DNA from: Bilabrum cf. latius
Lineage: Eukaryota
Direction: 5' to 3'
Assembly: GCA_965178125.1 (NCBI GenBank)
Contig: OZ237746.1
Span: forward strand, 434,001 to 498,000
DNA: 64,000 bases
Shown: positions 14,954 through 64,000 of the stretch, in pieces
Numbering within the stretch: the first letter of the stretch is position 1
How the letters are laid out: each line of letters begins with the position of its first letter
Notes under the pieces: model-generated
What the model saw: only the letters and a program-made list of their open reading frames with translations
Databases searched by the model: none
What the model was told of the DNA's origin: nothing
Position numbers and translations under genes: made by a program

Positions 14954-15477
14954 ATCGACACGGCCAAGCTATGCAGACGCAGCCGTCATTGTGAACTGTG
15001 AACTGGACGGAGCACAGCAACGTGGAAAGTCCAGGTATTCAGTCAAATCACTTAGTCATCTTGGACTTTCTGTCGCACTTAGCGCCTCTTCAATGACGCA
15101 GCTGCACCTGTGGGCAATAAATAGATCCGGTTGCGCGGCACGACTCGGAACCACTGAAAGCTGGGACCGGGCCCCGGGGACCCCTGTCGACTGCTATCCA
15201 AGGCTGGGAGGGTACACGTGGAGTACAGCCCTATATTGAACACGAATATCTGGTATGCCTACGTGTAGATACTGCATCAGTGTAGCCTTTGCGACTCGGG
15301 TCTCAGCGCTAGTCTCATGCGATCCATCCGAACATAGCGCAATTTCTCAATGGAACTTAATTTGACAATATGCATACTTGTGGTATAAGTAAATTGATAC
15401 CGGCAGCAAATTGCGTGCAGCTCACCAAGCATCATGTTCCGTATTTTGCTCTCGTTTTCGATGGTCTCGTCAACGGC

Positions 15478-38200: not shown

Positions 38201-41200
38201 GCCAATCCAGTGGGCGAACTGGAGCGGAGCTGGTAGTGTTTGACACCGTCTCGAAGCATGCATTAGGTGCCGAGCAGAAGGGCGTATTCGGTACAGCACA
38301 GCGCGAGGATGGTACGCTGGACGCGGAGGTGGACGAGGTTGAAGACGATAGTCGCGTGGATCAGGGACCCACGAAGCATCTGCTAGACGCTTCATGGAAT
38401 AGCTTCGCGCCGACCGGCCGTGCAAGCCCCGCTGGCGCCTGGCGTTGTGTTCTAGATGACGATTTCTACAGCGCACCGCCGTCGACCAAATCTGATGATG
38501 CTACTGGGGAGGACGAGGAACGTCCTGGCCCCGGCTATCCGCCTAGCTTTGACCAGCTCGCCAGCCCGCTGCTGGCTCCTGGCGCCCAGACCATGCTGGC
38601 TCAGACCGGTCTGTCGGCTGACGGCGCAGCTGCGAAAGGCAACCAGACTGGTGGCACTAGCGGTAGCGGTGGCCCGCCGACCCCTTTGGAATGGCCTTCC
38701 AAAGAAGACTGGCTGCACTGGGCATCTGTTCGGAAGCAGGCAGCATCGAGGTGCTGCATCGTCTGGACGTGCGGAGATTGCCGCAATCGAGAATGCGAGC
38801 CGTTGGCTGGTCTCTTGCGACGCGACGAGGCGCCCCCCTTGAGAATTGGCGAATCGGTGCTGCTGTACCCCCCGGCAAAGGCGCGAGAAAGCGCAATGAT
38901 CTGGGTGGACCAGGTCATCGCAGTGACATCGCCTACTAACGCAGTGTCAGGCTAGGAGGATTCTGCTGCACCCTCGCAGTCTTCACCGACAGAGCCGCAT
39001 TTCGGGTTTTTAGATGGCGTATTGCAGGGACCCAAAACAATGCAGATTGCAGCGCAGTAGTCTGCGGCTGCTCTTGTCCAGACGAGCGCATCAAGCGCAC
39101 CTCCAGTGCCGGTGCCGGCGGCCGAAGACGCAGACCGGTTCAAGGCGGAAGCGATGTGTTCCGCTGCGGCTCATTTTGTGTAGGGGATAGAACAAGGGGC
39201 ATTAGAAGTGCAACTGAGCGCCCAGGCGCACGAAGGCGCAGCTGCGGTAACATCTCCGGCCGTGCAGGCCGTTTGCCCGCTCACTCGGGAGCAGCGGGTG
39301 ATCGCTGTCCGATGGGCCGTGCAATGCGTGAGGGCCGTGGCATGGGTGCTGGGAACCTCCAGCCAGAGGAAGGGTCTATCGACAATCATACCGTATCCTA
39401 GTGGCGCCATAGCGGCGAACCAATCCACGATTGCAAGCGTGTCTTCTTCCTCCTCGTCAGCTTTAGCTGCCAACGGTGTGTCGGGCGCACAATCTCCTGC
39501 TGCTGCGGGCCACGTGCTGTCCATGGAAGTGTGGACTGGTACGCCCAGTCTCGCATTTCCCGCCATGCAGGCATGTGCGCCGGTCAATGCCCCGGCTCTC
39601 GGCACTCGACTGACCTTCACTCCTGCTTCCCTGCAGGGGTGGTCTCAGATCGAGCCTGCTGCGAGACGTATTGCCGGATCCTTCGTTCGAACTGTCCTGT
39701 CTCTGGACCACAAGTCGTCAACTGCGGCGGCGCTGTGGGCCACCAGTGCTCAAATGTCGGCTGGAGATGTGCCTGTTGATGTTGGCTCCATCCCCGCCGT
39801 TGTGGCTGGCCGACACGCTGAGCAGCTCTTTGCCGGTGGCGTGCCCTCGATGGAGACTGCCAGGCGGGCTGTCATATCCGCCTCTGTTCTCCGCCGGGCG
39901 GCTGCAGAGCAGATGGTGGGTGCGCTACGAAATGGGCAGCAGACGCGCAGGTAGTACATCGCCAGGCATGGGATCACCTTCGGGCAAGGTCACGTCGTTA
40001 ACCCTGACCTGGTGACAGTTGTGGACCAGGCGGCTGTGGCTGCGATACGGGGGGAATACCCCTTTCACAGTGACGTGCTGCAGCAAGCAGTCGCCTGGAA
40101 CGCAGATCTTGGGCATGCCACTGCACTCCAGATCGTAAGGACCCAGGCAGACCGATAGCTGGCCTCGGTTCCTACGGGACATCAGGCTGAACGGGCTTCT
40201 GGTCGCGACGATGCTTACTGGCGGGAACTGGCAGCCGCTGCGCGGAAAGCCAGGGCCAGCGCAGCAACTAGACCCCATGCCAACGCAAAGGCTGTGCGCA
40301 GCACCAACAAGCACGATATCGCGCAGGACGCGCTGAAGCTGCTGCCGTAGTTTGTCCCGGTGCCCCTGAGGCAGGTGGTGCAGGCACTCCCCGAGGGCGA
40401 CGAGATCGAGTCTCACGAGGCCCAGCCGTGGGATGCCGATTGCTCGCTAGCCGAAATGTGCGAGTCTGGGTGGCTAGCACAGCACCGGGATAATTCGCTG
40501 ACGGAGGGCCTGGACAAAGCCATTCCAATCACGGCATCCGGGCGGCTGGTGCAGAAAGGTCTCGGGGTGGCACAGCTGCCGAATCTTCTGCCTCCTGCAA
40601 GCCGTGCGGAGGAGACCGCGCTGGTGAACTGGTACTGCAACGTTATGGCGCAGCGGATGGGTTATGCCAAATCCATGCAACGGCCACCCCATGACGGATC
40701 CGATTCGCAGGCCGCCGTTGATGCTGCTGGACGAGACAACGACACCGGGTCACGTCAGGCCTCCCTGGTACTGCGGGGAGACCCCTGGCAGCACCCGCCG
40801 AAATACGTGCTAGAGAAAGCAATCCGCTGGCTGGGAAGAGCCAGCGATCTGGATGGATCTGACTCGAATGAGAGCGCAGTTTCGGCCAGTTTCACCGTAC
40901 GCATCGATAGCGATCGCGCTGCTGCTGTCGCGCATCACCTGGAGCGACGGATGGACAGCGCATGGCAAACACGAGGGGAGGAAGCCGACTCTGGAGCGGC
41001 ACAGTCAACCGGGTCCTCTGCGGGAATTGCGGGCTGCAGACTGCCTTCGGCTTGGGTGGGCGACATGGGGCCGCCACAGGCGCAGGCAGCCGACACGTCG
41101 GCCAGTGCGGCAGGGAGCAGGCCAAGGTCGGAGCGAGGGGGGAGGAAACGGGGCGCGGGGGCGTCAGCCAGCGCGTCTGTAAGTGGTCACAAGACTGATG

Positions 41201-43644
41201 ATACGGCTAGCTTATCCACCCTGATCCGCAGCGTGGCCCGCGCTGAATCCCAAGCGGAGGATGAGGTGGAGGTGGATCCTCGGTCGCAGTTTGAGACGTC
41301 TGCTTCGGACGCTGTTGTCAAGCTGCCAATGCTAGAAGACTTTGATTTTGGCTTGGGTGACGATTCAAGCGCTGCCACCGGCCATTCGGGTGACAACGGC
41401 GCGTGGTCCTCGGCGTCCGGCACGGGCGAGTCGCCGTCTTCAGCACCAGTGAGCCATGCAATGAGCGATGATGCCGAGGCAGAATCCCCATATGCAGGCA
41501 TCATGGGCGGTGCAGCAGCTGCGCTTGATGCAGCAGGCAGTGCAGAATTTGCAGCGGAGCCAGAGCTGCTGGCGAGCCGCGAATCGTGGGTGCGGACAGG
41601 CAACACCACGGTTGTCAACACCGGCGTCCCTACCCTGGCCCTCGTATCCCCGAGGCAAAACTTCACAGAGCGTAAGGACAGGTTCGCGTTCGTGCCTGAC
41701 GGATACCTCGCATTCGCCATATTTTGGTCGCATTTAGACGGTGGCAGGCGGGGACTGTACAGGATGACTGTGCGCACTGAGGCGGTGGGACACGCACGAG
41801 GTGCAGTGACCCCACGACGGGCAATCTTTGCCATAGACAGCGAATCCAGAGATGAATCCGACCACCCTATGATCAGCGTGCAGGCAGGCTGTCCCATAGG
41901 GGCGACCACGGAGCTTGTCCTCGCCCTGCGCCGCCTGAGCACAAAGCAGAGCGCAGTGCTGGGCGTGCCGCCACCGCCGTTGCCGTGGATGGCAGATGCA
42001 TCACTGCTTGCTATTGGCACGTATTTGGAGCCGATCTTGCTTCAAAATGCGCTGACGGATGACCCGGACAGCGGCAATGGCAAGTCGCCGCGCAGCCGCA
42101 GCCCAAGCAAGCGGCAGCGCAGCCCGAGCAAGCGTGCAGCGAGGCACGGAGGCGACGCGTCGCGGTCCTCGGAGTAGGGCTCCAATCCAGTCTTGGCTGC
42201 CGGGCTCTGGAACTTGGGGCAGGTGTCGGGCACGCTCCGGGCCACTGCGTGCCGGCTCCACCGGATGGCTGATGCTTCTGACTCCGAATGGTTCGCAGGG
42301 TTTGACCTGATGGGCCTTCTTCGCTCTGCCGCCCTTGCAGATTTCCGCAGGCACGCCAGATACATCATGGGTGCGCCGCAGGAGCAGGGACAGGAGGTGG
42401 CGGAACGGCCACCCCCCTGGAAGGTGGTCACAGCAGACGATGCGCATGCGGTAGGGCTCGACCACCTCGCCGCCGAGATCCGCATCTGTGAAGCCGGCCG
42501 TCTCGCCGCCACCATACCCTCCAGCAGAGGCACGAAGAAGAAGCGCAGACGATCGACAAAGCAGGAGGAAGTATCCAGCAGAACCAAGGCAGATCTCATT
42601 TCAAAGATTAGGGACATGAAGCGGGACTCTGCCATTCAAACGCTGTAGGACTTGGCAAGTGGAACGGGTGCATTCGCAAGGAGTGCTGCTTCAGGCCCGG
42701 CATCAGGCGCAGGAGCTTCGTTTTCATCGTCGGCCACATCCAAAAACGGACCGGCCACATCGCTGCAATTGTCCTCGTCGTCCTCAGCAGCGAGTGCATC
42801 TGCTGGCGAGCCTCCCACCCCTGGTGACGCCGGCCTGAAGCGCAAGGCCAACTCCCACACCGTCCGCGCCCTCTACCTCAAGATGCTGGCCGAGCCACTT
42901 GAGGACAGAGTCAGGGCGCTCAGATCTGCCATTCATGGGTACGGGCTCTTCGCAGCGCGCGACCTCCGGAAGGGCGAGTTTGTGTGCGAGTATACCGGCG
43001 AAGTGCTCCGCCAACCCCTTGCAGACGTGCGAGAGAGGCTGTACGAGCGTGCTTCACTGGGGGGAGACTGCTACCTGTTCCGTCTGGATGACGACTACAT
43101 CGTGGATGCAACCATGAGAGGCAGCGTGGCGCGGTTTATTAACCACAGCGGTGACCCGAACTGCGATAGCAGGATCGTGCAGCTGCCCACCCAGGTCCCG
43201 GTCTCTCTGTAGGGCGTGCTGCAAGTGCCGATCCGGGGGCCGGGAGCACAGGGACTGGCTGATGCTGGCGTGGGGGTTCTTGCGAAAGAGAGGGTTTCTC
43301 AGGATGAAGCTCTGCTGGGCAGTGCTGTCGATGTGAGCCGCGGGCGCGGGAAATCTGGGGGAGTGTCACCATCTTCGGAAGCGGCGGGAGGTGTGGTGGA
43401 GGGTGGCACAGCTGGTGCGTTGGGCAGCGCATTCGGCCCCGGGGACTCTGGCGGCGCGTTTCAGAGCAAAAAGATCGTGATCGTGGCGCTAAGGGACATC
43501 AAGAGGGGTGAGGAAGTAACGTACGATTACAAATTTCCGTTCTTTTTCACGAGGCAGGCCCAAGAGGCCGTGGCTGCGGTGGAGCAGGAAGTGGCAGAAA
43601 GGGCCATTGAGCGAAAGTTGCTGATTGATGAGGGGTGCACTTGA
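29281..43644 (+). CDS. Trithorax/MLL/SET1-like histone H3K4 methyltransferase (~4,760 aa, TAG=Gln; intron 29377-29466)
   Basis: A single frame over 29467-43644 with about 38 TAG and no TAA/TGA. PWWP-like LVWGREPNVPWHPC; PHD-like FCPL...MIQCDTCDSW...FVCSPC; bromodomain APGYLRVVRRPMDLSTI...NAMVFN; second PHD CARCGS...CAQCGQSAHLAC; FYR-like VPDGY..IFWS; SET SAIHGYGLFA / YLFRLDDDYIVDAT / RFINHS / EEVTYDYKF. Confidence 0.85.
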
Positions 43645-45110: not shown

Positions 45111-45439
45111 AGGTGTCTTACAGTTGCCAAACATTATTTTTCCGGTTGCGTGCTGCAGCCAAACTCATTTCAAATTGATGCATTGAATTTCGAGAGTGAG
45201 AAGCAAGATTGTGCCAGTGGTCGGCATTGCGGCGCGTGTCGTCGCAACTTGATGAATGCCGGCAAGCTCTTCGTCGGCAACACCAGCAGCATTCGCACAA
45301 CTTCGACAAATAGCACGAAAGGCGTTTCTTCAAAAGCACCAATTGCTCGTATCGTATCGTGCTCTGGCTGACACCTCGAGTGCACAGATCGAATTTTCGT
45401 GACTGCTCGAGTTCCTGAACGTAGTGCTTCAGGCTCTCC

Positions 45440-48400
45440 ATGGACGCTATACCTGTGGTTCAACGTCCAAGCGCACCTGCAATAGATCATGCCATCTCTG
45501 TTGATGAAATGGTTCGGGAGGCAACTTGCACGAATGGTGTCGTCGTGGTTTGTGGGGCGGTCGCTGTCATCGCGGTGCTTTCGACTGCCACCACGATAAT
45601 CACGAATAGGAGGTACGATGATAACATCATTCGAGGGGCTGACCGCGCATACTCTGTAGATTATATGATGCCTTATTTCGTAGGGCTCAATGATACGACA
45701 GAGTCGCCTCATGCGACCGAGGGCAGCCACGCATTCGGCCTGTTGGCATCGCAGTTTGCCATCGGCATTATTTCCACGGCAATTATGGCAAGCAGTCTCA
45801 CAGCATGTGTCATTTTTATTGCATTAGTAGCAGGAGAGTGCTCTAAAGACAGCCATGTGGGCTCTAAAGGCCGCCATGTGGCTGGCTGGAGGCCGTGCGA
45901 CCTGTCTGCCTGGAACCGTCACTCCATCGTCACTGTCCTCCTCGCACTGCTATCCGTCGCTATCACATGCGAGGCGTACTACCAGTACATTCCAGCTGAG
46001 GACCAGCCGGGCATCTTCGGCACTGGTCCCATCCCAGTGTCCGGCATGCACATCACCAACATCATTCCGTTCATCTGGAAGGTTGCGGCTGCCGCCATCT
46101 CCCCGGTTGGTGTGACGATTGGGCTCTCGATCTCGCTGGAGGACACGGACCAGATGCCATTGGAGGCGTTCTTGACGACGTGTGTGGTCGTCGCCCTCGC
46201 AACTGTCATTGCTGTCATCATCGGGGCCACCACGGCGGAAGATCCCAAGGTCGAGTATGGCCTTAAGCGCAGCAGGGTCTTCTGGATCGTCGTGTCGGTG
46301 CTGGGTGTCGGCCTATGCGCTGCGCTGACCAACGCTGCAATCTCCATCAGCAAGCTGGGACTGGCGTAGGGCACGGCATCTCTGGGCCTCTCCGCACTCA
46401 GCGACATCGGCCGGCTGGGGACAGGTGCGAGCAGCACCAGGTACGGCAGCAGCGGAGGGCTCCGGCTCCGGCTCAACAGCAGCGCTGCCACTGCCAGTGG
46501 AAGCACTGACTGGCTCTCTGGTGACAACGATAGCGTTGCACTTCTTAGTAGCGGTCTGGACGTATCTTCACAAATGTTAGGTACGAATGGCAGGCCACTT
46601 GCGAGCCTTGCTTTGCTGCGTCTGGCGAGCCTCACAGAGTAGTTGCGGCCCACTGGCATTCGCTCGTACGACCCCTTAGCAATCCTGCAACACCACGCGG
46701 ATCGTTTGGAGGCTGAGCAGGGACTCAATGCGCGCTAGGCCCTATATGCTCTATCGCCGCTGGCCAACGGAGTGGCGCTGACGGAGGACAACAACTGGTG
46801 CCTTTACTACGCTGCACAGATGGACACGCAAGCAGCGCTAGCCATGCGGAGCCACCTTCAGTCCAACGGATCTCTCCCAGTCAACCTGATGACCAGCCAA
46901 GGAAGAGAACTAACTCCAAGTGCATCCGGTTCATCGCAGCAAGTGGAGGTCCTGCGAGCGCTGCGGAATGCCAGTGTCAGCGCCAGTGACGCAAGCATGC
47001 GTCAGGCGTTCTACGGCGACATGCCCGCCCCGACCACGCACGTGTTCTGGGCGATCGCGTCGCTTCCGCTCGGAATGATGCTTCAGGTGAACCTCGCCGT
47101 GTTTGTTGTGCTGGTGCTGCTTACACCAAGTACGGGCATGGATGAAACTATCAAAACGTCCAGCAATGAGTTCCGGGCGTGGCTGCTCGAACGCACCAGA
47201 ACTCGATCCAAGCGGCATCTCGGGCGCGCGCGCACAGCGGAGCCATTGGCAGGCAATTGCGTGACGTGCGGAATGGCAGATGATAACTGTGTCGAGTTCA
47301 AGCACTGGCTGTGTTCTACATCAGCATGTTGTTGGATCTGCTAGTGTCAGTGCTGGAGCGGCTGCTCGGCGTGTAGTCCTTCGTCGGCACGGTCTAAGAA
47401 CCTGATAATGCGTTTGGAGCGAAAGCAGATGCGAAGGCGCTCAACATCTGGATCTTCACAGAAGCACAGCAGATCACTGCCTTCTCAAAACGGTGCTGCT
47501 GTCATTGATGCACCTGCCCTGTTGAGAACTGCCGCTTTTCATGAAGTATCATCCGTTGCAGCGAGCGCCGTAGGTTGTTGCCCGCGAGGCCACGGCTAGT
47601 CAAAAGCTGGAGCATTCGACGGCGCGTTTCCTTGCTGTGGCACGCAATAGGGAGAATCCAGTGATTGGTAGCGCAATCAACACGCAGCCGCATCTGCCCT
47701 GGTGCAGGCCAGTATGCGTCGTGCTGCCACAGTCGCCATGTATTTGAAAGGGCTGGCCGTACTAATATTCTTTGAGATGCTGGCTGGTGGACGGATCAAA
47801 TCGAGGGTTAGGATGGAGCCACCAAGACTGTGTGCTTGCGCCTACAGCCGTATCGCTGGCATGGATGGGCTCTGGGATCAGTGCACGGAGGAGCAGCAGT
47901 CTGCTAGCATTGATGATCTCTTGGGCTCGTTTGCGATGGGAGCGATTTCGACAGGGATCACCCGTCACTTGTCTACCCGAATCATATTTGTCGTGCTTCG
48001 TATCATGCTCGTGTATTGTGTGTTCGTGTATGCCCGCTAGATGCGGGATCTAGAGCGGGCCGTGGACATGTCTGAGATGTAGAAAGCCGCGCTGCAGTCG
48101 AGGGTGCGGTTCCTGTCGCACGAGTGCAGGGTGCCTCTGAACTCGGTGGTACTGGGTCTGGATTTCTGCCAGGAGGGAGCCAAGGCGGCTCGACAAGCAT
48201 TGGAGGCGATGCATCGGACGGGCGCGTCCCCAAACTCTGGCAGTCCTGGCTCGCTGGATTAGGACGGTGGAGACAGCAGCGCACTCAAGAAGCGACGGTA
48301 GTCTGTGCCTCGCCGATAGGCCTCCTTTCAGGTAACTTCACGTTCCAAACGACGAGGGTCGTTCGTTGAAATGCAGAGGTGTGGCAGTGAGAAAAACATC

Positions 48401-51241
48401 GTGGACGGAAAGACAAAAGCGATCTTGTCTAGTACATCTCGAGAGAGCTTACCGCTCGAACGTCGGAGACGGTAGTCTGGAATTGGCAGTACTGTGTGCA
48501 GCTTGAAAGCAATGAAGCTGCTGCAGGAGGCTGTGGGTCTCTTCGACGACACGCTGCCCTCGCTCGAGGCAGCCACAGAGGCAATGCAGACCACCTTCAA
48601 CGACGTGCTCGACCTGCAGCACATCGAGACCGGTAGTCTGAAGATCCGCAAGAAGGCCACGAGGCTGCTGCCTTCCTGCCTGCTAGATACACGTAAGACC
48701 TTTGAGGCCCAGGCAGAGCGCAACCACACGGGGCTAGTCCTGGCTGACTTGCATCCAGCCAGCGGCATGCCGATGGAGTGTGACCCAGTGCGGGTGAGAG
48801 GAGCTCTTGGAAACTTCGTGTCGAATGCACTGAGGTGGACCGATGCGGACACTAGCGATACGAACAACGAAGGTGGCGGCTCAGTGGTGATCGGCAGCTC
48901 AGTGGTGCCTCCGCACCTGTGGGACGAAACAGACTGGCAAAAGGCTGTGTCCACTGTTGGCAAAAAGCTTTGCAGCCGCATGCAGGCAATCTTAGTGACA
49001 GACAGGACACATTCCATGGCAGATGCACCGCAGGATAGCCACACGCAAGCTGGATCGAAAAATGGAGATGGCTGCCAATCCAGTGGTCGCAGTCTCCCAG
49101 ATGACTCCGACAGCAGCGGCGACAACGCGAGCAGCAGTGGTCAGAGCAGCTGGACCGGGACTACGTCTTCGCAGGGCAAATGTGTGAAAGCTTCGCGTGT
49201 CATGCCTCTGCCGTCCGCGCCCATTAGCTTCGGCGCACTGTCTACGCGTAGGCTGCGAGCGTCTGGTGATTCCAGCGGAGCAGGGTCAACCGATGTTGAT
49301 ACCTCCATTGCAGATCCACGCTGTACGCGTCGCAGCACGTCTCACCAGGACCCGCCTCCGCAGTCGGACTCCATAGATCTCCCAGCCGCCCACTGCATCC
49401 GCTTGGGTACTTCTCCCCCGTCGCTTGGTAGTCCAGGCACACCACACAAGGGTCGACAGTGCGATGTGACTGACACGTGCTCTGTCGCGCAGATCGCCCC
49501 AGACACTGTCAGCAACTATGATGACATGGTCGAGATGTACGAGGCGTAGAATCAGTCAGGTTCCACTGTATATGGTGACTCAGGTGCCCTGGATTCAGGT
49601 GTCAGACATAGCACCGCGATAAAGCCCAGTTCTCAGGCAAGGACAAGCGCGAATGTAGGCGCTAATCATCCCTTGAAAAAGCACGACAGCGATCCGTTCA
49701 GCGGTGCAGGCACCTGCACCGAGAGGCCTGAGATTCAGCTCGTCTCTGCCGATGCGCCCGGCGGGGACGACGACCGCCGGCCCTCCGCTCCATCTGGCTC
49801 TGACACAAATGATGTAGCGGCTCCTGTTGCTGAGCTCTCCCAAAGTGGCACTGGTAGAACCGCGAAGAGCGGGAGCCGTAGTGGATCTGGTTCTGTAGCT
49901 GCTACAGATATGCCAGTGTGCCTGTGGGTGTTCGACCAGGGCCCCGGCATCGACCGGTCTGCCTGGGGCCAGGTCTTCACGTCCTTCGAGACGCTGCACT
50001 CGGGCATCCTCACGGCGGAGGGGCAGGGGTCCGGGCTGGGGCTGGCCATCACTGCGACCGTGATGAAGATGCACGGGGGCTGTGTGGGCTTCAGCTCCAT
50101 GCCTGGTGTGGGCAGCGTTTTCTTCCTGTGGACAACCATGGACGTGATCAGCGGCACCCATTATCGCAGCCAAGGGAGTGCGTCGAGCCAGACGAGTCGA
50201 ATCAGTGGTCGAGGTGGAGGGGACGGGCAGATTCCCCAGGAGCTGCTAGAGCCGAGCCAAGCTGAGCCCAATCACGACGATCATCATCATCGTGCCCTTG
50301 GCAGCTTCTTGGACGACAACGCTACCGTGTCGAGTTGCGCCGGGGGTAACGTTCTCAATCGTGAGTTGGCGAGGCCAGATTCGTCTGGCTCGCTGCTAGA
50401 GGCGGCTGGCGGCCTAGCTGCTGGCCGAGGCAAGGAACGTACAGGTGACGTGAAGCTGTTGGGAGCAGGTACTGACAAACCAGAAAGTCTTGCTGGCAAT
50501 TTAGAACCTAGACTTGCTGCTGAGCCCGATGTGAGCACATTTGCTGGGATAGGTGCTCTGTGTGCTGCCGAGCCCTAGGTTGAAAGCTTGAGCAAGCGGT
50601 CTTTTCGCAAGCCAGAACGTGGCGCTGTTTTCAGAGCAGATGTACCGGAGTATCCGGCCAGTGCAGGAGTGGCGCAGGCAACAAGCATGGGCTCTAGCTC
50701 CGGACCGAAACAGGCATCCAAAAAGCGTAGAGTGGTGCGGAGGAAAGCCAAGAACAATCAGTTAACTGCGCCTAGCACAGCAACATCAGCCCAAGCTCGA
50801 CCGAGATAGATGGTTGTCCTTGTAGTGGACGACAGCCGCACCAACAGGCTCTTCCTATCACGCATGGTGCGATCTGCCGATCGATCCATTCAGGTGCTGC
50901 AGGCTAGCGATGGGCAGGAGGGGCTGGATGTGCTCAAGCAGAGAGCCCAGCAGATGGGAGATCAGGCCCACGGTCTTGCTGCCGACCTGGTGCTGCTGGA
51001 CTTCTCCATGCCTCGCATGTCCGGGCCCGAGATGGCGCGGGCCATGCGGGAGGACAGCGACAGCCGTATCAGCGGGGTGCCGATCGTGGGTGTGACGGGC
51101 AACGCGCTGCCCGAGGACCAGGCGTTGTTCCGGAGGTGCGGGGCGCAGGACGTGCTGCTGAAGCCGGTGCGGCGGGCACAGGTGGGTGAGGCGCTGGAGC
51201 GAGTGGAAAGGCTGCAGCGGGCACTTCGTGCATTGCGATGA
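45440..51241 (+). CDS. Multi-transmembrane hybrid sensor histidine kinase HK2 (~1,930 aa, TAG=Gln)
   Basis: Paralog of HK1. ORFs 45440, 46772, 47408, 47702, 48494, 49673 and 50810 share one frame with TAG-only breaks. Same H/N/G1/G2 boxes and receiver; ends at TGA 51239-51241. Confidence 0.88.
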
Positions 51242-51755: not shown

Positions 51756-54067
51756 TTAGGGCTCCTGGAAACTGATGCCCTTCAAATGGCAGAAGCCTGG
51801 CAGCTCATCGGCACCCCTTGGTTGCACAGCCTTGCTCAGCGCTTCCCAATGCGGTGGGCACGGGATATCGTTCCCATCACCTGCTTGCACGAACGTCGCA
51901 GTCGGTGTCTTCTCTGGTGGGGTGACTGCAATCGCAGCGGTGATGTAGGCGTGAATGGCCAGGTCCGCCATATCAGGTGATCCAATCAGTGCCACAGACT
52001 CTCCAAATTTATTCGCACACCCTTCCAGAGTGACCTGCCGCGCGGCGGGAGGGCTAAGAGGGAAGGTACTACCTCTTAGGCTACTCAAAGCTGCTTTACC
52101 CGATGCTGCTCCGCCTGCAGAGAGTGTTGTTTGGAAGCGAGGACGAGACACGCTGGCATGAACCTCGTTGCATTTCCCATAGCACTTGCATTGCGCTTGC
52201 GACGTGCACAGGTGCTCCTTCTGCAGGACGCGGTAGACGTTGTGCGCGACCTGCACGCCTTTGTCGGGGTACGTGCGTAGGCCCATCAGCACTGGCACGA
52301 AAGCAATGAGCATGCCTTGCCCGGCCACGTGGTCAATGTGGTGGTGATTGGACACACGCTTGGCTTCCTTGCCACCCACCAGCAGTCTCGCGGCACCAAG
52401 CATGTTTGCGAAACGATCGGAGTTCATCTCAGCACCGAGTGCGTTATACATCCACTGCATGTACTGAGCTTTCGCGGAGTTGGTTGCGTCTTGCTCTTCT
52501 GCAGGTGTCTACGCCCCTGCACCACTACTTGGACCTCCGTCCTAGCCTAGGACGGCAGATTCTTGATCCTTGCGAACCCATCGCTGTATGTCAACTCCCC
52601 AGACGAGACCGTTGGCCCTGTAGTTGTTGGTCAAGGCACTCGTATCCCAAGGGCTGCCTCCTCTTGTCTACGCACTCGGCTTCTCTGGCTTTTGTTGCTT
52701 AGGCTCTGCCTAGGACGGACCCAGCGCGTACACCCCTTTGAGACAGTCAACGATGGCCTGATCGCTATCTGCATTGGAATCTCCGCACCACCGACCGTCG
52801 AACGCCCCACCATCCATCCTGCTCTGCAAGACAGCCTAGTAGGCAGCGAGAAACAGTTTTGCCAAAATCGTGAGGGCCTTGGAGCCATGCTGATCTTGCG
52901 AGCGTCTTGGCGGTGGCAAATGTCCGTGTATCCCGGCGTTAGTTCCTGCCGCACCCCGAACATCTCCACGACATCCGAGTAGGAATCGAGTAGGCGGCCA
53001 TTTAGGTCTCCTTTTACTGTCATATCTGCTGTTAGAACGACCAGTCGGTCGGTTTTCCGGAGTGTCTGCACCGCTTCTACTGGTGACATGGAGTGGGTAT
53101 CCCCTTGCTTTGGTTTTGATGATCCACCACCTGCGACCTCAGGAGCTTCTTGGCCACTCTTGTCGTCTCCAGATCCAGTTTCTCCGCTTGTGTCTGCTCG
53201 GGCAGAGCTACTGGTAGATCCAGAGACTGGTGACTTCCCGCTGCCTGGTCCACCTGGACCCCCCCCACCTTGTGGTTCAGACCCCCTGTCAGACGGAGAT
53301 GATCCCCCCTCGCCACCGGAAACCATGCTTTTGACGCGGTCATCAACGCGCTTTCGAAGTTTCTCCTGGATCTCCTTGATCTTGGTGTTGTCAAAACCAT
53401 CCTTGAACTTCCGATTCTGCTAGGAAGACACGTACATGACGCTGGCCTGCGTCTGTGGACTCAGATCGCCGGATTCGAGGAAGCGCGGGAGCTCCGTAAA
53501 GGCCCTCGGCAGCTGCTCGTCCCTGTCGACTTTCTTAGGCTTCTCCCACCCAAACATGGCATGCTCCTGGAGAATGGCAGCGAGGTCACTGTAGTCTTCC
53601 ACAGCTCTTAGCGCGGTTTCGTCACGGACGCCGGCACTCTGCCTCACTAGAGCTTTCTGAATCCCAGCTTGAGTAATAGGGCCACCCCAAGGCGTATTCG
53701 GGATGTACAGGGCTGGTAGTTCGCACGTTGCGACCGCATGCGTAGTATCTCTAGCTGTTGCGACCTAGTACACAAGGGCAAATCGGTTGTTCTGGCTGCG
53801 ACATTGACACATCAGGTTGACGCACACTTCAGGGTAGTCCTTGCAGAGATCGTCTTTCCTCAAAGGTATAGTCGGAACGCTTGAATCATGCTTGATACTC
53901 TCCTTGATGACCTCTCCGCGCAATTCCAGGCTATTTACCTCAGCGACACCCTTGATGTCGTTCATATCACTTACAAAGATCTCCAAGGATGCAGTTAGTA
54001 CACCAGTTGCATCAGAAAGCGGGCCAGTGCTTGTATGCGACAGCCTGTACGCTCCGTTGGCTGCCAA
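51756..54067 (-). pseudogene. Unknown protein 'X', copy 2, with a 1-nt frameshift near 52881 (pseudogene or sequencing error)
   Basis: atggctc-caaggcc versus X1 atggctcacaaggcc. Homology resumes in the shifted frame and ends FCHLKGISFQEP-TAA at 51756-51758. Confidence 0.65.
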
Positions 54068-54342
54068 AAGTCGCTACACTTTGCGCTCCCTTTGGCGCAA
54101 GCGAACAGAGGCTGCAAATTCGCCTCCGGCGTTCTGCTATACGCTTAGCATGCCGTCAGAAGCTTGACACAGTCCAATAAATATAAGTTGTACCACCACA
54201 ATCAAACACATTAGCTTAGCAGTCCGGGTTTGTAGTGGAGCCAGTTCGCCACATGATGGTTCCGTCGAACGTCGCCGCCGGCGGCGCGGCGCCGCCACAT
54301 AGGCCATACTCCACTATTTGCATCTTTTGAGCAACGCCAGCA

Positions 54343-56104
54343 ATGAGCAGCCCTCCGACTGACGCCAGCGTGTTTTTGGATGAACTCGCTACCCTGAGGG
54401 GGCCAAGGAATGGATTTATGAAACGGTACATATCACTGTTTAAGAGCAGTGGGTTCTGGCAACGATACGATGCGTGCAGATTGCTGCCATGTCCATACGC
54501 GAGATGTTTTCCCGATACCGAGCCATTATCGATCCTGTACGATAGGCCGGCGACTGTTGAGAATGTGAGCTGGTGCCCAGGTGTGCTGGACTGACTATTT
54601 GTTTGCACGAATCGTATGCCATCAGTAGTGTGGTACTTGTGTTTTAATCAGCACAGGTTTTGGGATACGTCTTTTTCACGAATGGCTACGAATGTCCAAA
54701 TCTTCACTAGGTACGACAGGTCGTTCCGGACAGAGTGTTGTCGGCACGCAGCGATGTGAGAAACGCGGTTGCGGCTCGCTGGGACCCCTTGTATCGCCAA
54801 CTGCAGCATTGATCATCTCGTTTGGCTTCGTTCCACCTTCGAGTTGCTTGTCGGTGCTCGGCACGCAGCTCGGGCTGACGGTGGTCCACGGTGCTGCCTA
54901 CCAAGGGTACTTCAGATCCCTGCGCGGTCTCCAGCGCATCGGCTTGCTGCACAACGACCGCACAGGATCCGTGTGCGACAAGGAGCAGGGCAGTCCGCTG
55001 GAGGGGAAAGGCGAGTTCGGGCGGCATCGGCTGCGTCGTTGGCTGGAATCGAGCGAGGCAGCCAAGCTAAATGAAAGGTTGGAAACGAGGGTTTCAGAGT
55101 ATCTCAATCGCAGCTATAGAGAACCCTCGCATTGCCCTGGCATCCCTCTAGCTGATACCCCCTTGCATTTGGTGATGTATCGTACCAACTTGTGCAGTGG
55201 CCAGCAGTAGATCAACGCCTTCGCCTGCATGGCTCTCCTTCTCCGATCAGGAGGTGACCTCACGGCTGTGAACGACCTCGGGTACACGCCGTTGAAGCAC
55301 GCTTCCGCTGAGCTCAAGGAGATGCTGGAGGACGTGAAGCACGACTCCATGGCCTGCCTGAGGCGCATGCTGGAGCGGCTGCCCCCTCACATGGCTAGGG
55401 CGTGCGCGTGGCACGGCAGGGGGCATGACGTGATACGGTTCCGGCGGGCGCACGAGGCGCAGCGGGACGCTCGGATGGTGCATCGAGCGGCGAGGGAGGG
55501 CAGGCCACTGGAGCTGGGGAAGCGGCTGCGGGTGGGTTGGTGGGCGGGAGGGGCGTGGTTGCTTGGTGGGAATGGGTCGCCAGGTGCGGGCCTGAGTCCG
55601 CTTGCGTGCGCGGTGCAGCAGGGGCATGTGGAGTGCGCGAGCGTGCTGCTGGGGGCGTGGAAGCGGGGGCATGGGAGGGTTGTGTTTGGATCACCTGCGA
55701 AGGTTGGCGGTGCGTTGATCGGTCGGCGGGGCTGGGATGGTATGATGGACGGGATACTTGACGCGATCCGCAGCGGGGTACAAGCGGGTGTGTGCTAGGG
55801 TGGTGGCCGGGTCGAAGGTAAGGAGGACGAGGGCCGTGTGGCCCATGCGTTGGTGGAGGGGAGGGCGTGGTGGGGCGGGGACAGGGAAAGGGAGGAAGGA
55901 GACAAGGTCGGCGGCAAGGCGGTGTGCGGGGGTGTGAGTGTGACTAGCAGTGGGAATGCAAGTGAGGATGACACGGGGAATGGCCGTGGCAGCAGTGATC
56001 GCCTAGTATACTTGAATGGGCGAGCAGCGCAGCTCGAGCGGGAGCTCGCCGAGGTCCGGTCGGAAATAGCACTTGCTAAGGCTGGATTAAGTCGAGACAG
56101 CTGA
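54343..56104 (+). CDS. Ankyrin-repeat-like protein, copy C (~500 aa; exons 54343-54564, 54711-54755, 54869-56104)
   Basis: Same splice sites as copies A and D. The TGA at 54592-54594 falls inside predicted intron 1. Reads through TAGs at 55208 and 55796 and ends at TGA. Confidence 0.72.
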
Positions 56105-56850: not shown

Positions 56851-58606
56851 ATGAGCAGCTCTCCGACGGACGCCAGCGTGTTTTTGGATGAACTCGCTAC
56901 CCTGAGGGGCCCAAGGAATGGATTTATGCAACGGTACATATCACTGTTTAAGAGCAGTGGGTTCTGGCAACGATACGATTCGTGCAGATTGCTGCCATGT
57001 CCATACACGAGATGTTTCCCCGATACCGAGCCATTATCGATACTGTACGATAGGCCGGCGACTGTTGAGAATGTGAGCTGGTGCCCAGGTTTGCTTCAAC
57101 TAGTCTACGCGAACCGAATTGATGAAGTAGTGTGGTACTTGTGTTTTAATCAGCACAGGTTTTGGGATACGTCTTTTTCACGTATGGCTACGAATGTCCA
57201 AATCTTCACTAGGTACGCCAGGTCGTTCCGGACAGAGTGTTGTCGGCACGCAGCGATGTGAGAAACGCGGTTGCGGCTCGCTGGGACCCCTTGTATTGCC
57301 GACTGCAGCATTGATCATCTCGTTTGGCCAAGTTCCACCTTCGACTTTCTTTTTGGTGTTCGGCACGCAGCTCGGGCTGACGGTGGTCCATGGTGCTGCC
57401 CTTCGAGGGTACTTCAGATTCCTGCGCCTTCTGCAGCGCATCGGCTTGCTGCACAACAACCGCACAGGGTCCGTGTGCGACAAGGAGCAGGGCAGTCCGC
57501 TGGAGGGGAAAGGCGAGTTCGGGCGGCATCGGCTGCGTCGTTGGCTGGAATCGAGCGAGGCAGCCAAGCTGAATGAAAGGTTGGAAACGAGGGTTTCAGA
57601 GTTCCTCGATTGCAGCTATAAAGAACCCTCGCATTTTCCTGGCATCCCTCTAGCTGACACCCCCTTGCATCTGGTGATGTATCGTACCAAAGTGTGCAGT
57701 GGCTAGCGGCAGATCAACGCCTTCGCCTGCATGGCTCTGTTGATCCGATCAGGAGGAGACCTCACGACTGTGAACGACCTCGGGTACACGCCGTTGCAGC
57801 ACGCTTCTGCTGAGCTCAAGGAGATGCTGGAGGACGTGAAGCACGACTCCATGGCCTGCCTGAGGCGCATGCTGGAGCGGCTGCCCCCTCACATGGCTAG
57901 GGCGTGCGCGTGGCACGGCAGGGTGCATGACCTGATACGGTTCCGGCGGGCGCACGAGGCGCAGCGGGACGCACGGATGGTGCATCGAGCGGCGAGGGAG
58001 GGCAGGCCACTGGAGCTGGGGAAGCGGCTGCGGGTGGGTCGATGGGCGGGAGGGGCGTGGTTGCTTGGTGGGAATGGGTCGCCAGGTGCGGGCTTGAGTC
58101 CGCTTGCGTGCGCGGTGCAGCAGGGGCATGTGGAGTGCGCGAGCGTGCTGCTGGGGGCGTGGAAGCGGGGGCATGGGAGGGTTGTGTTTGGATCACCTGC
58201 GAAGGTTGGTGGTGCGTTGAGCGGTCGGCGGGGCTGGGATGGTATGATGGACGGGATACTTGATGCGATCCGCAGCGGGGTACAAGCGGGCGTGTGCTAG
58301 GGTGGTGGCCGGGTCGAAGGTAAGGAGGACGAGGGCCGTGTGGCCCATGCGTTGGTGGAGGGGAGGGCGTGGTGGGGCGGGGACAGGGGAAGGGAGGAAG
58401 GAGACAAGGATTGTGGGAAGGCGGTGTGCGGGGGTGTGAGTGTGACTAGCAGTGGGAATGCAAGTGGGGATGACACGGGGAATGGCCATGGCAGCAGTCA
58501 GCGCCTAGCATACTTGAATGGGCGAGCAGCGCAGCTGGAGCGGGAGCTCGCCGAGGTCCGGTCGGAATTAGCACTTGCTAAGGCTGGATTAAGTCGAGAC
58601 AGCTGA
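56851..58606 (+). CDS. Ankyrin-repeat-like protein, copy D (~500 aa; exons 56851-57072, 57213-57257, 57371-58606)
   Basis: Tandem duplicate of copy C. Reads through TAGs at 57704 and 58298 and ends at TGA. Confidence 0.72.
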
Positions 58607-58726: not shown

Positions 58727-60126
58727 ATGGTAGAACCTTCCGCCGGGTTGTGTTGCCGTGAAATGCCAAAGCAGACGCAAGGACGTGATCTAGTAGATGG
58801 CATTTCTGTTAGCGCTGTTGTTGGTTTGCTTGAAGACTCTAACAATGTGCTCTTATCACAAGCAAACCAGCATGATTCAGGTGAGCAGTATTGAAACGCA
58901 TTGCTACGGTCCGAAACTAAAGAAAAATGCCTGCAATATATCTAAAATGAATTGAATAAACCGCAGGGTCCGACGTTGATCCTGCTGATGCCCGAACATT
59001 TGCAAGAGTACGCGGGGGTATTTGGAAGCGCGGCGAGGCCGGTCCGCTGCAGCGTCTCGGGACACATCCGAGGTATTTCCTAAGAGATCCTGCTGGGATA
59101 CCAGCTGGAATTGCGAACCTTGGAGCTACCTGCTTCCTGAATGTTTGCTAGTAGGTGCTTGTCCGTGACGAAGCGGTTCGGGCGAGCGTGCTCGCCGCAG
59201 GGGATGCGATTGACGATCTTCTCCAAAAGACTGGAAACGATTACATCAAAGCCGCAGAGCTGGTACTCAGTGAACCCTTACAAAGCATCCCGCCGGGACG
59301 AAGGAGCTTGTTCACAGGCTCAAAAGAATCGCTGCCTTCGATGAAGGTGCCGAAGCTTGCCAAGCAGCTAGCGACAGTGCGAGCAGTCGCGGCGGCATGG
59401 ACCCATATGACCTTCGGCCGCAGGGCCTTCTTCAAGCCGGAGGCCATCGTTCACCTTCTGAGCATTGCACCTCAGGTACAGCAGGACGCTGCGGAGTACC
59501 TCACTCTCTTCCTCAACTTCATCACGGAGATGACTGCGCTGGTGCTGCGGGGGCGCGAGGCAGCTTCGGTGAAGATTCTGCACGGGCACTATCGCGTGAC
59601 CGAAATCAACTCACGCAAGTGCTTGATTTGCAAGTATGAGTCCACAAGAGAGGAGGAGCACAGGCTGCTGGTGAGTTGCTAGCGCTTTTTGAATCATCCC
59701 ATGCAAGAGGCTTGCTCACTCACTTGTTTGCTTGGCCTTCGTGCTGCTGACCGTATTTGCGAGTGAAGCTCTCGACCTGTGTGCTAACGATGTAGCTGAT
59801 TATTCCACTAGGTTGCTCATGGGCGCCTTGATGACATTGCTCGTGCTTGTGTCAATCCCCAATTGAAGCGAGCTCACCCAGCGCACGACTTCCCCATTCC
59901 GCTAATTCGAACAACCTACTGGTCGCAGGGGCTCTCGCTAGCAGGAGACTGCCGAGATTTCCAGTCCATCGTGCGCGCATCCTTCCAGTCAGAGCTCATG
60001 TACGGCCAGAATGGCTACGCTTGCCAGCGCTGCATCGAGAAGAGAGAGGCCGATATTCTCTCTGGCAAGATTCCCTTAGACTCAGATGCAGGGGCTGCAA
60101 AGAGCAGCGGCAGTGGCACCCGTACT

Positions 60127-60169
<43 letters not shown>

Positions 60170-63100
60170 GTGGTGGTGCCGATAGTGCTAGTGATAGGCC
60201 CACCAGAGAACAAGCAAGGGCTCAAGCAAAGCATCACAGGGTGCCCATGGTTCGGACGATAAAGCCACACAGGCTGCCACCCAAGTTGTGCGTCCAGATC
60301 AACCGCTTCCTGTACGACCCCAGATCAATGCAGACGAAGAAGAGCCACAAGGCCCTGTGCCCGCCGACTCTCCTGAACCTGTCACGGCTAGCTCAGGAGG
60401 GCCAGGGATCTCTTCAGAACCCGACGCCGAACAAGTCTGACAGGGACTACGAAGCCTACAGAGAGGCTGTGGCCCTGCTGAAAGAGGACTAGGAAGAGGA
60501 GAAGGAAGCAGCGAGGACGGTGAGTGCTGCGCGGGTACATCGCAGAGGAAGCAGACGTAAAGGTGGCGCCGCCGCCGCTTCAGCATCGGCCTCTACCTTT
60601 GCCTCTGGCTCAGTCTCAGTCTCACATGAAGCAGTGAGATAGGCACAAGCTGCGACAGGCTTCGGCGAGCCGGACACGGACATCTTGCAGGGAGAAGCAG
60701 TTCGGCACCTTATAGGAGGTCATGAAGAGATGGATGATGAGGGCAACCCGCTGCCTGTACTGTACGAGCTTGAAGCCGTCATCTACCATCAGGGGAGCAC
60801 TGCCACGAGCGGGCACTACACGTGCGACGTATGGGACCACGAGAGGTGCATGTGGCTGCGCTGTGACGACAACGAGGTATATCCGTTCGGGCCTGATGGC
60901 AAAAAGATTCAAGAGCAGAAGTCAGCGGGCTCCGTGGGATCGTTATCTATTGATCTCACCGACGACGCATGCGCTGCAGCTCCAGCTTCAGCCCCAGCCC
61001 CGGCCCCTGCCGCAGCCGCAGCTCCAGCTCCAGCTCCGGCCCAAGCCCCGGCCCCAGCTCCAGCTCCGGCCCCAGCTCCAGCTCCAGCCCAAGCCCCGGC
61101 CCAAGCTCAAGCCGCAGCCCAAGCTTCAGCCCCGGCCCCGGCCCCAGCCCAAGCCCAAGCCCAAGCTCAAGCTCAAGCTCAAGCCCAAGCCCAAGCCGCA
61201 TCCCCAGCCCCGGCCCCTGTACTGCCCCCAGCTCTGGAACCATCGGCTGGCAAACAGGGAGCCATGGGTGGCAGGAGAGGCAAGACCAGACCGTGGCCTG
61301 TGAAAGATGAAGGCCAATCTGCTCGTTCAACCAAGACGGGCTCTCGTCCAACCCTTAACCCGACAACACACGGTGGGTACGGTTTCGACTCACAGGCATC
61401 AGCTGGGCCAAAATTCTAGGTCCGGCCAGTCCAAAGTAAAAGAGGCAGGCAGCCTGTGGAGGTCTGCCCCGCTTCACAGAAGGGCCTCGGGCCTGATCGG
61501 ACCCCTGCAGAGTTGCAGACTGCAGAAGTCCAAGCCAGTCTGTCAGCTGAAAGGCAACCCGCATCTCGCAATGACGTGCCTACCAGTGTGCTCCCAAACT
61601 AGGCCTTGGCACCAACAAAAGCTGAAGCCCCATCATCTGCATATCATCCTACGCTCGAAGGCCAGCGAGCAGACCTGTAGCCGATGGCGTATGTGAACCC
61701 ACGCTCAGTCATAGCACAGTCGATATTGCAGCCTAGACGTCAGGCTGCCATGATGCATGGTATGGAGCTGCATAGCAGTCCCTAGATGGAGGGCTAGGGC
61801 CGTCCCAGTGTGTTTGGGAATGATGGTGATGTCGCTCCCACTGGTGCATTAGGTCTAAGCAGCGTTTCCAGCATATCTGACCACGGTGGATCACCGCAGT
61901 CTAGAGTGGGCTAGGCATTCAGATTTGATCCAAGTCGATTGCAGAACCCCCATGCGGGTCAAGCTGTGCTTCATCAGAGCGCGGCCATGGCCTTCCAGCC
62001 TCAGCCTCAGCCTCAGCAGCAGTTGCAGTTGCACGCCGAGCAGCAGCTTCAAATCGTGCAGGGGTAGCATGCCGCGCAGCAGTTGTACATCGCGTAGCAT
62101 ACTCCGATGCAAGGCAACTCGCAGGCACAGGGGAGTGCCACTACAGTTCTGTTGGATGGTAATGCACCCGTCACTCACTACCTGCCCAGAGACCAAGTCA
62201 CAGAGGCGATGGTACATGCGCACCAGGCGACTGGAGTGAACAGCGTCCCGTCTGGACGGGATGCGCAGGGCCGGCACAAGGCAGGCCCGGGCGGGTCCGG
62301 CGGGGCAAAGCGCTCCTCTGCTCGACGCAGCAAAAGGCAACAAAAGAAGCAAGAAGCTGCAGCTGAACAGTAGAGTGATGCCATCATCAAAGAGCAGGCG
62401 GCGGCTTCAGGTGATACAGGCATGCCCGCTACTGAGTCTGAAGGTGGTGCAGCTGGCCGTAAGCGAGCTAGGCCTCGAAGCAGAACCAGATCACTGGGCT
62501 CTGCGCCTGGTGCTCCAACAGCCCGAGATGCCCCTTCCAAGCATCAGGAGTGTGCCGACGTGCCTGGAACTCTAGCCAGCGGGGCGGTGCCCTCCAGCAA
62601 GAAGCGACGCACCGGGACTGGAACAAGTGCTGGTGGCGGAAGCGCTGCAAAGACTGCGGGGTCGAGCGCACCAGCAGTCGAGGCTGCCGAGCAGGATGAT
62701 GATGACGCAGATGATGATGACGCAGACGACAAGGAGATCGAGTACGTAGAAGCGGTGCAATCGATGAGCTAGGAGGACAGGGACAGACAAGAAGCGCGTC
62801 GGCTGCAAGATGAGGAAGAGAGGCGGGTGTCGCCGCGGCGAAGGGGGGCGAGGTGGAAGTAGTCCCCGCAGGGGGATGCGTCAGGAGCAAAGCCTCATGC
62901 TGCATCCAACACCCCCAGCCGCGCCTCTGTGGGCAATAATTCCGAGTTCCTGCCGGACGACTCTGACTTTCAAAGCGGCTCAGAACGTACCTCCGCCCGG
63001 TAGAGGGAAGAACCCACGCATCCTCACAAACGCCGAGCATCCCGCGCAGCCGCTGCCACAGCGCGAGCTGCTCTTTAGCAGATCTAGGAATAGTCTGGTG

Positions 63101-64000
63101 AGCGCAGCTCCAAATCGGACGCAGACGCTGATTCGAACTCAGGTGCGGATACTGATTTTCAGCAGGATGAAGATACCAGCGAGGCCGATTCACATGATGG
63201 CAGTGGCCAAGCGCCTGGACGGCGGCGGCCTGGCATCACACTGGCGCACACACGCGCTGAGTCTTCGACTTCGTCCTAGGCATCCTTTCCTTCTATGGCC
63301 CTGCCAGATCCTGCTTCATTGCAGTCTTCGATACCTGCAAATTCTGCATCCGTAGACTCTGGGTCTGTACCTGTGCCTGCAACTGCCCGAGGTACGACGT
63401 AGCCGAAGGAGATGCCAGCACGATAGCCCGCCCGCAAACGCGCCTCTTCAAAACAGGCAAGCCACGATTCAGTCCTTGTAAATGGCCGCTACAAGTCGAC
63501 AGGGCACGATTCAAAGATGTCTGCTTCACGTGGAGGAGTGAATGGAACAGCTGAGAATCGTGAGCCAGACATGGCGACAGCAACGGGCAGCAAGTCTCGC
63601 GGGAACCATCCGGCCACATCGGGGAAGACGAAGCCATTCAGGCTGCCTCGGCCTGCGTAGGGTGCCGCTGCTTCTACAGGTAAGGAAAGTTCGGCCCTCG
63701 ACAGCGTGAGGTTGGTGGCTCTCAAGCGTTCCTCTAGACAGCGGGTTGGCAAGCGCGGGCACATGAATGCTGTTCATGTACCCTCGCTAGAAACCTAGCC
63801 AGCTGCTATCGATCTCACTAGCGGGGAGACTGGCTCCAGTGCAGCTCAGCCAGCATCCTCCTCATCCTCGTCGTCCTCCTCATCATCAATGTCAATGGAG
63901 GTCTCTACACGGAGAGCCAGGTCTCGGTCTTCCTCCGTAGTGCCAGTCTCAGATCCCGCCATGGATGTCGTATCCCGCCTTCAACTTGTCAGGACCGGTG
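58727..64000 (+). CDS. Ubiquitin-specific protease, USP48/UBP26-like, 3'-partial (predicted introns 58881-58966, 59671-59811)
   Basis: Cys-box PAGIANLGATCFLNVC(TAG)(TAG)VL, QQDAAEY, NGYACQRC, LPPKLCVQINRF, His-box YELEAVIYHQGS..SGHY..W..CDD. The frame stays open to the window end with TAG-only breaks. Start at ATG 58727 or 58763. Confidence 0.85.
60128..60168 (+). repeat. (AGC)n microsatellite encoding poly-Ser within the USP gene
   Basis: Perfect cagcagc run. Confidence 0.9.
60975..61218 (+). repeat. Hexamer-based low-complexity repeat encoding (AP)n/(AQ)n
   Basis: Units gctcca, gcccca, gcccaa and gctcaa. Confidence 0.85.

Follow-up and report, generated by a model that had tools for sequence, protein, structure and literature searches.

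To our knowledge, UAA and UAG are nearly always reassigned as a pair, and only a handful of lineages treat the two differently. The table in which UAG encodes Gln and UAA and UGA are stops is known from Iotanema spirale, a member of the Fornicata (Panek et al. 2017, PMC5304391), and, in the sections of the other reports drawn on here, from Hartmannula sinica and Trochilia petrani (Phyllopharyngea) and Protocruzia tuzeti (McGowan et al. 2024, PMC11687900; PMC10089648). UAG and UAA are both read as Gln in Tetrahymena, Paramecium, hexamitin diplomonads, ulvophytes and Amoeboaphelidium (PMC5304391 and PMC11687900, in part). UAG encodes a different amino acid in rhizarian exLh and the TARA phyllopharyngean ciliates (Leu) and in Scotinosphaera (Ser, according to the portion of PMC11687900 used here); in these three, as here, UAG is reassigned alone via a CUA anticodon. 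According to the same sources, the main stop is UAA in Iotanema and exLh as well as in the phyllopharyngean cases (PMC5304391, PMC11687900, PMC10089648).

Here we describe a window of 64,000 nucleotides, the whole stretch of DNA that was analysed, together with the genome to which it belongs (G000). Sequence comparison makes it very likely that UAG is an ordinary Gln codon of this nuclear genome and that UGA, for the most part, and UAA are its stops. The code table itself is known; new here are the lineage, the dominance of UGA among stops and the Tyr-like body of the tRNA that would read UAG.

Results

Two in-frame TAG codons in the Cys-box of a USP gene

The USP Cys-box lies on the plus strand at 59107–59160, as placed by frame, Pfam UCH and PDB alignments. 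The frame from 59101 reads PAGIANLGATCFLNVC-TAG-TAG-VL, as the earlier note had claimed, and the codon TGC at 59131–59133 is presumably that of the catalytic Cys of the USP family. The two in-frame TAGs at 59149–59154 are read as Gln-Gln on the basis of reading frame, UCH score, PDB and paralogue alignments and a spliced contig. The second (59152–59154) falls on the near-invariant Gln of the box (Q in 19/19 paralogues and Q/Q/Q in PDB alignments), and the first (59149–59151) on a usually hydrophobic position (paralogues L13/V4/M1/I1 with no Q; PDB L/L/I), both as had been described. The paralogues are 19 of the 20 Cys-boxes obtained from 30 of the genome's 53 UCH matches, and the three PDB alignments are distinct, with weak E-values of 0.16–0.85. 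Since L, V, M or I stands in all 19 paralogues, the first TAG would be a real, unusual substitution if UAG is Gln.

In the Pfam UCH alignment that the earlier note had proposed, Gln was the best-scoring residue for both TAGs. With the two read alike, the match scored 32.8 bits for Q, 30.7 for L, 29.8 for K, 28.6 for S and for X, 27.8 for Y, 27.3 for E and 27.2 for W. Leu is only 2.1 bits behind Gln, so this site alone does not exclude Leu, a caution that had accompanied the original observation. The view that paralogue alignments favour Gln held among pairs from the window, where TAG stands opposite Gln at 9 and opposite Leu at 1 of 15 differing positions; these include three ankyrin-repeat paralogues, which are not independent of one another. 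The three copies are at 627–2063 (−), 54569–56104 (+) and 57077–58606 (+), two of them in tandem immediately upstream of the USP gene, and they exchange TAG and CAG at adjacent Gln-Gln positions.

The USP gene has three exons on the plus strand. Exon 1 (58727–58880) starts at an inferred ATG, the spliced contig beginning at 58752. It is followed by an 86-nt GT..AG intron (58881–58966) whose joint is present in run X1 and whose ends were verified. Exon 2 (58967–59670), supported by Pfam and a spliced contig, carries the Cys-box and the first half of the UCH domain. A second GT..AG intron of 258 nt (59671–59928) has its joints in runs X1 and X2, which come from different studies; a TAG at 59680–59682 is inside this intron and hence non-coding. 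Exon 3 (59929–64000) reaches the end of the window, beyond which its frame is closed by a TGA at G000:C12:506679. X1 and X2 are contigs from public runs whose RNA origin is a guess; we treat them as RNA because of their GT..AG joints, and such contigs mask minority variants. Both Cys-box TAGs are covered by X1 record 3, which is spliced at intron 2 and shows no other letters there.

Each half of the gene is matched by Pfam UCH (PF00443; E 2.2e-6 and 1.1e-17), and Cys-box and His-box share one frame of the spliced model. The motif HQGSTATSGHY, which we take to be the USP His-box, is at 60787–60819 on the plus strand, within the UCH match and downstream of the in-frame TAGs. From the ATG at 58727 the model has 4536 codons, among them 55 TAG, 156 CAG and 66 CAA, further introns being assumed absent; only two were seen. 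Its last 2,892 codons match no Pfam family. The gene is very long (window 58727–64000 plus L159:1–8681) and contains an Ala/Pro/Gln repeat.

Other genes of the window opened by TAG as sense

When TAG was read as sense, the closed ORFs of the window, which has a GC content of about 60%, rose from a maximum of 688 codons to 4743, 2333, 1940, 1926 and 1047 codons. Reading TAA as sense opened or changed none of its ORFs, which argues that the in-frame TAGs are not due to chance. The five ORFs all end in TGA: a 4743-codon ORF with a bromodomain and a C-terminal SET domain (29413–43644, +, 38 TAG), a 2333-codon ORF with no Pfam family (20666–27667, −, 18 TAG), hybrid histidine kinases of 1940 codons (45419–51241, +, 17 TAG) and 1926 codons (9275–15055, −, 16 TAG), and a 1047-codon ORF with no Pfam family (2303–5446, +, 6 TAG). 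The two histidine kinases are paralogous; their kinase and receiver domains are near-identical and their N-termini have diverged, a pattern that suggests recent conversion or duplication. The paralogue of the 1047-codon ORF (51756–54415, −) changes frame near 52880, through either a frameshift or an assembly error.

TAG falls on conserved Gln columns across the genome

The earlier note had proposed looking for enrichment of Leu, Glu, Tyr or Trp among TAG columns of BUSCO genes; we used dyneins instead, in which Gln, and none of those four residues, is enriched at conserved TAG columns. With TAG as sense, 18 of 19 dynein stretches (10 kb each, cut by coordinate) are open throughout, and the 19 hold 280 in-frame TAGs, no TAA and a single TGA, which is terminal. 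The tally was made against 269 of 270 external homologues (P0266, at 99% identity to the query, had been removed) and counted the 199 of 280 TAGs with at least 20 aligned homologues each, leaving out the 81 below that number. The consensus at TAG is Gln in 15/17 columns at ≥90% conservation and in 22/36 at ≥70%, as compared to 20/25 and 32/51 for CAA and 141/167 and 272/357 for CAG. The column profile of TAG has a cosine of 0.99 to those of CAG and CAA, the next highest value being 0.74. Summed log-odds at TAG were +185 bits for Q, −177 for E, −279 for K, −298 for S, −521 for L, −684 for Y and −869 for W, a sum that treats columns as independent and is drawn mainly from one gene family. In the same tally, 61 of 61 control codons decoded to their standard residue. 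The 14 non-Gln columns of the 36 at 70% (E7, L2, and one each of N, H, R, S and Y) give a rate close to the 19/51 of CAA, with Glu somewhat frequent.

TAG is the only stop within 28 dynein AAA_6 matches (20 occurrences) and within the 53 UCH matches, save for the match that spans the USP gene's own intron. Of the 79 ORFs with at least 500 codons in 38 evenly spaced 10-kb stretches, 75 contain TAG after the first Met, and TAG makes up 13.4% of Gln-family codons. In-frame TAGs are also found in eRF1, Prp8, dyneins and GluRS. The genome-wide columns thus favour Gln and support the earlier note's reading of UAG, and the Cys-box TAGs of the USP gene are two of many Gln-coding TAGs in the genome. 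UAG stands on conserved Gln columns in Iotanema as well, where no UAG terminator was found (PMC5304391, in part); in ciliates with UAG as Gln, UAG is present in 78–91% of genes (PMC11687900, in part), as compared to the 75/79 long ORFs here.

The number of TAGs differs among genes. Cytosolic HSP90 (L205) has none after the first Met, nor does the analysed part of GlnRS (L238) contain any; there are two in eRF1 and 50 in 3,333 codons of dynein-2. Highly expressed genes may avoid TAG.

UGA is the main stop codon

The same 38 stretches yielded 119 non-overlapping ORFs of at least 300 codons, of which 79 end in TGA, 17 in TAA and 23 are open, so that TGA closes 79 of 96; these ORFs are raw, some being false and some ending in introns. 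Outside long ORFs the TAA:TGA ratio is 1440:2388, and the excess of TGA at ORF ends over this background (p 3e-5) indicates that TGA is favoured as a stop. Among eight recognisable C-termini, those of eRF1 and YchF/OLA1 end in TAA and those of HSP90, GRP94, GlnRS, GluRS, Prp8 and galactokinase in TGA. Iotanema belongs to another supergroup and has UAA as its main stop (PMC5304391, in part), whereas here it is UGA. Likewise, UAA ends 86.9–98.3% of genes in five ciliate genomes (according to the part of PMC11687900 consulted), as compared to 17/96 long ORFs here. The UAR codes share UAG as Gln with this genome but also read UAA as Gln. UAA is not so read here: it ends eRF1 and YchF/OLA1, interrupts no domain, and DNA and pattern searches, which were non-exhaustive, gave no nuclear tRNA-UUA.

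In context-dependent codes such as those of Condylostoma and Blastocrithidia, genes also end at the reassigned codon, which is depleted just upstream of their ends. It is improbable that UAG has such a dual role here, as Gln inside genes and as a stop near mRNA ends or in some genes. The last 30 codons of the 96 closed ORFs contain 20 TAGs in 2,880 codons against about 19 expected, neither an excess nor a depletion in a test of low power, which by an estimate from the counts would let stop use of TAG in roughly 10–20% of genes escape. TAG is the end of none of the eight recognisable C-termini. On the other side, one EML-like gene (L171) terminates TAG-TGA, the last 10 codons contain 9/960 TAGs as compared to 137/19,200 at 101–300 codons from the end, and a single tRNA-CUA gene was found. 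We keep UAG as Gln with UGA and UAA as stops as the preferred reading.

A nuclear tRNA with anticodon CUA and Tyr-like stems

A nuclear tRNA with anticodon CUA is encoded at G000:C23:907607–907679. It scores 69.8 bits, the second best of 48 Rfam matches from a search in which 63 of 780 candidates were scored; the non-exhaustive DNA and pattern searches gave no second copy. C34 of this tRNA should be unable to pair with UAA, and UAG would thereby be uncoupled from UAA. For H. sinica and T. petrani no suppressor tRNA was detected, according to the portion of PMC11687900 used here.

The acceptor and anticodon stems of tRNA-CUA are identical at 20/24 positions to those of the genome's tRNA-Tyr(GUA) (acceptor stem 12/14, anticodon stem 8/10) and at 12/24 to those of tRNA-Gln(CUG), and 416 unrelated tRNA pairs reach at most 17/24. 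The comparison set was called by ARAGORN at default threshold and comprised tRNA-CUA and 30 other distinct nuclear tRNAs (31 in all), His and Leu not being among them. Overall, tRNA-CUA resembles tRNA-Tyr more than it does either tRNA-Gln, and it shares with tRNA-Gln(UUG) the D-stem (8/8) and the discriminator G73. Of the eukaryotic TyrRS determinants C1-G72, A73 and G34 given in the relevant table of PMC9976931, it retains C1-G72 and lacks A73 and G34. It carries G73, G2-C71, U35 and A37, which are listed as bacterial Gln identity elements in that table, where the set for eukaryotic Gln is absent (PMC9976931, in part). From these four elements and the Gln-type D-stem, and because a long variable arm, A73 and G34 are absent, we infer that tRNA-CUA would be charged with Gln by glutaminyl-tRNA synthetase. 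The GlnRS of the genome (L238), set against solved structures, has G in the anticodon-binding stretch where the human and bacterial enzymes, neither of them a close standard-code control, have R.

The match of the stems suggests that tRNA-CUA arose from tRNA-Tyr(GUA) by G34C followed by an identity switch, an origin to which we give an even chance, rather than from tRNA-Gln(CUG). Convergence of a Gln-derived tRNA and gene conversion are alternative origins of the Tyr-like stems. Yeast amber variants of tRNA-Tyr take traces of Gln from E. coli GlnRS (PMC1483225, in part), a result that makes a Tyr-to-Gln switch chemically plausible. Suppressor tRNAs elsewhere have their closest matches among the tRNAs for the same amino acid, in the portion of PMC10553269 drawn on here. 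For Iotanema, the part of the report used (PMC5304391) does no more than predict a tRNA-CUA, one derived from tRNA-Gln(CUG), whereas here the tRNA was found and its stems point away from that origin.

The Tyr-type acceptor stem raises the possibility that UAG is ambiguous, mostly Gln and partly Tyr. The identities of both stems and the retained C1-G72 speak for such mixed charging, which is nevertheless very improbable given that the other Tyr determinants, A73 and G34, are replaced (PMC9976931, in part) and that Tyr, at −684 bits, is the consensus in 1/36 conserved TAG columns. Gln as the single meaning of UAG is the reading carried forward.

eRF1 is changed at conserved positions

The eRF1 gene (G000:C35) contains two in-frame TAGs and ends in TAA. 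The column of the first TAG has Q in 89/94 homologues; the second is at position 69, where 92/98 homologues have L and 6/98 have Q. The N-domain motifs that read stop codons are altered: in human numbering, the changes are G29A, N30D, I35V, S60V, L69Q, F117P and N129S. In all, 21 of 101 conserved columns are changed, as compared to one for the median homologue, and one of the 21 is a TAG read as X. The eRF1 of Cafeteria is canonical, with GNGTS, TASNIKS and L69 kept. L69 has been linked to UAG readthrough in the part of PMC5304391 used here. This eRF1 may have lost most of its affinity for UAG, with G29A, N30D, S60V, L69Q, F117P and N129S as candidate changes; they remain candidate causes because the proteins of this organism are divergent throughout and Q69 is also present in PDB 8ip8. 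Iotanema eRF1 has T32G within GTS (PMC5304391, in part), whereas here the changes are in residues next to GTS, which is itself intact. Position 69 is changed in exLh as well, as L69A.

The two TAGs on Leu columns, the first of the Cys-box and that at position 69 of eRF1, together with the 2.1-bit margin at the Cys-box, are what would speak for UAG as Leu, as in rhizarian exLh and some phyllopharyngean ciliates, and Glu at 7/36 dynein columns is the corresponding point for Glu. The dynein log-odds refute these readings, and Ser and Trp with them, unless dyneins are unrepresentative, and we regard them as exceedingly improbable. In addition, the variable loop of tRNA-CUA has 5 nt and no long arm, so the tRNA is not of the Leu or Ser type, unlike the ciliate tRNA for UAG as Leu, which has a long variable arm; with Leu at −521 bits, the code of exLh is not that of this genome. 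The last alternative, that the USP gene is a pseudogene, that its TAGs result from misassembly or that splicing or RNA editing takes them out of the transcript, could appeal to the frameshifted paralogue at 51756–54415 and to the masking of minority variants by contigs, but has next to no probability and is refuted at the genome level by TAGs in conserved genes (eRF1, Prp8, dyneins, GluRS), by domains interrupted by TAG alone and never by TAA or TGA, and by spliced contigs of two studies that match the stretch, with TAG-TAG covered unchanged.

Inserted elements and repeats

Virophage/Polinton-like elements are known from Cafeteria. AT-rich regions (30–42% GC) with genes of this kind occur in 3 of the 38 sampled stretches, at L165:2031–3725, L186:1828–6056 and L191:1910–6676 (contigs C1, C11 and C16 of G000). 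They encode a protein-primed PolB, a DUF5906 primase-helicase, an rve integrase with a chromodomain, a Sputnik minor capsid protein and an AAA ATPase. Seven virophage-like ORFs contain 69 TAG, 29 CAG and 73 CAA codons and end in TGA (5) or TAA (2); these in-frame TAGs and ends indicate that the inserts follow the host code. TAG accounts for 40% of Gln codons in the inserts and for 13% across the sample as a whole.

Stretches of ~34% GC contain a group of near-identical tRNA-Met(CAT)-like genes, six or more in number, together with a related tRNA-Pro(TGG) (loci L022, L041, L049, L050, L051 and L053); all of these are apparently carried by AT-rich inserted elements. A dispersed 28-nt repeat is identical at 12 places on 10 contigs (C9, C17, C22, C23, C27, C28, C35, C38, C39 and C43).

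Lineage and relatives

The organism, a single-celled marine flagellate, is likely to be a long-branched bicosoecid stramenopile (Bigyra) related to Cafeteria. Cafeteria roenbergensis is the best match among species-named sequences (eRF1 69%, dynein-2 36%). In a dynein-2 tree in which two long branches join, the organism falls with the Cafeteria clade with support 100/98; in a tree rebuilt from 20 of 31 rows without the long-branch P0127, it is sister to the Cafeteria clade with 99/95, on a long branch. The tree of the eRF1 M/C domains disagrees, with G000, L079 and P0001 joining the long, ciliate-like L135 branch and not Cafeteria; we treat this discordant placement as probable long-branch attraction. 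An HSP90 search, with one relative at 91% and stramenopile matches near 65%, was uninformative for lineage. The dynein-2 of Cafeteria roenbergensis/burkhardae is deposited as one protein of 4,414 residues, which, together with the canonical eRF1, is consistent with the standard code there.

A metagenome relative (L079:2–709) has an eRF1 that is 92% identical, with an in-frame TAG opposite a CAG of G000 and a TGA end, which indicates that the code extends beyond this genome. An in-frame TAG within the matched stretch was found in 4 of 80 metagenome eRF1 loci, namely L079, L121, L135 and L139, of which L135 and L139 have in-frame TAA as well. The eRF1 of L121 (L121:1–1310, 65% GC) has two TAGs, one of them opposite a Gln of its relative L115, and a TGA end; its N-domain is strongly changed, and it groups near Cafeteria with low support, apart from G000. 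From this one gene, L121 is possibly a second reassignment of UAG.

Contig C12, which contains the window, carries 18S rDNA of 1,700 nt. A second 18S of 1,802 nt (L034, G000:C95:6099–7900), on a 17.9-kb contig, is 77–83% identical to the C12 rDNA and is probably from another eukaryote in the assembly. On the mitochondrial contig C111 (L054–L057, 38.4 kb), all listed ORFs have in-frame TGA and a TAA end, and there is a tRNA-UCA.

Discussion

In the literature searched, which took in parts of PMC11412368 and PMC13768787 and had most subscription journals and supplements outside its scope, we found no report of a nuclear code change in a stramenopile; an earlier report elsewhere is possible. Taken together, the results permit a broader reading that we put forward as tentative and less likely than not. 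This would be the first stramenopile nuclear code change, in which an amber-suppressor tRNA-Tyr was rebuilt as a Gln tRNA (G34C, A73G, G2-C71 and the Gln-type D-stem) and UAG and UAA were uncoupled in a GC-rich genome with UGA stops; resident virophage-like elements would have adopted the code, and L121 may be a second reassigned lineage. Within this broader reading, a genome that is GC-rich and has UGA as its main stop would make the explanation that UAA is too common to lose inapplicable, and the route from Tyr to Gln tRNA would be one that the papers drawn on here do not describe.

The finding adds a case of the UAG/UAA split in a supergroup for which no report was found, and a contiguous 48.6-Mb genome shows tRNA-CUA, eRF1 and GlnRS together. 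Three questions are now testable: to which residues of eRF1 the distinction between UAG and UAA is due, whether the amino-acid identity of a suppressor tRNA can change en route to fixation, and whether a change in the host code constrains the viruses of that host. Annotation with the standard code truncates most long genes of this lineage, both in genomes and in marine metagenomes.
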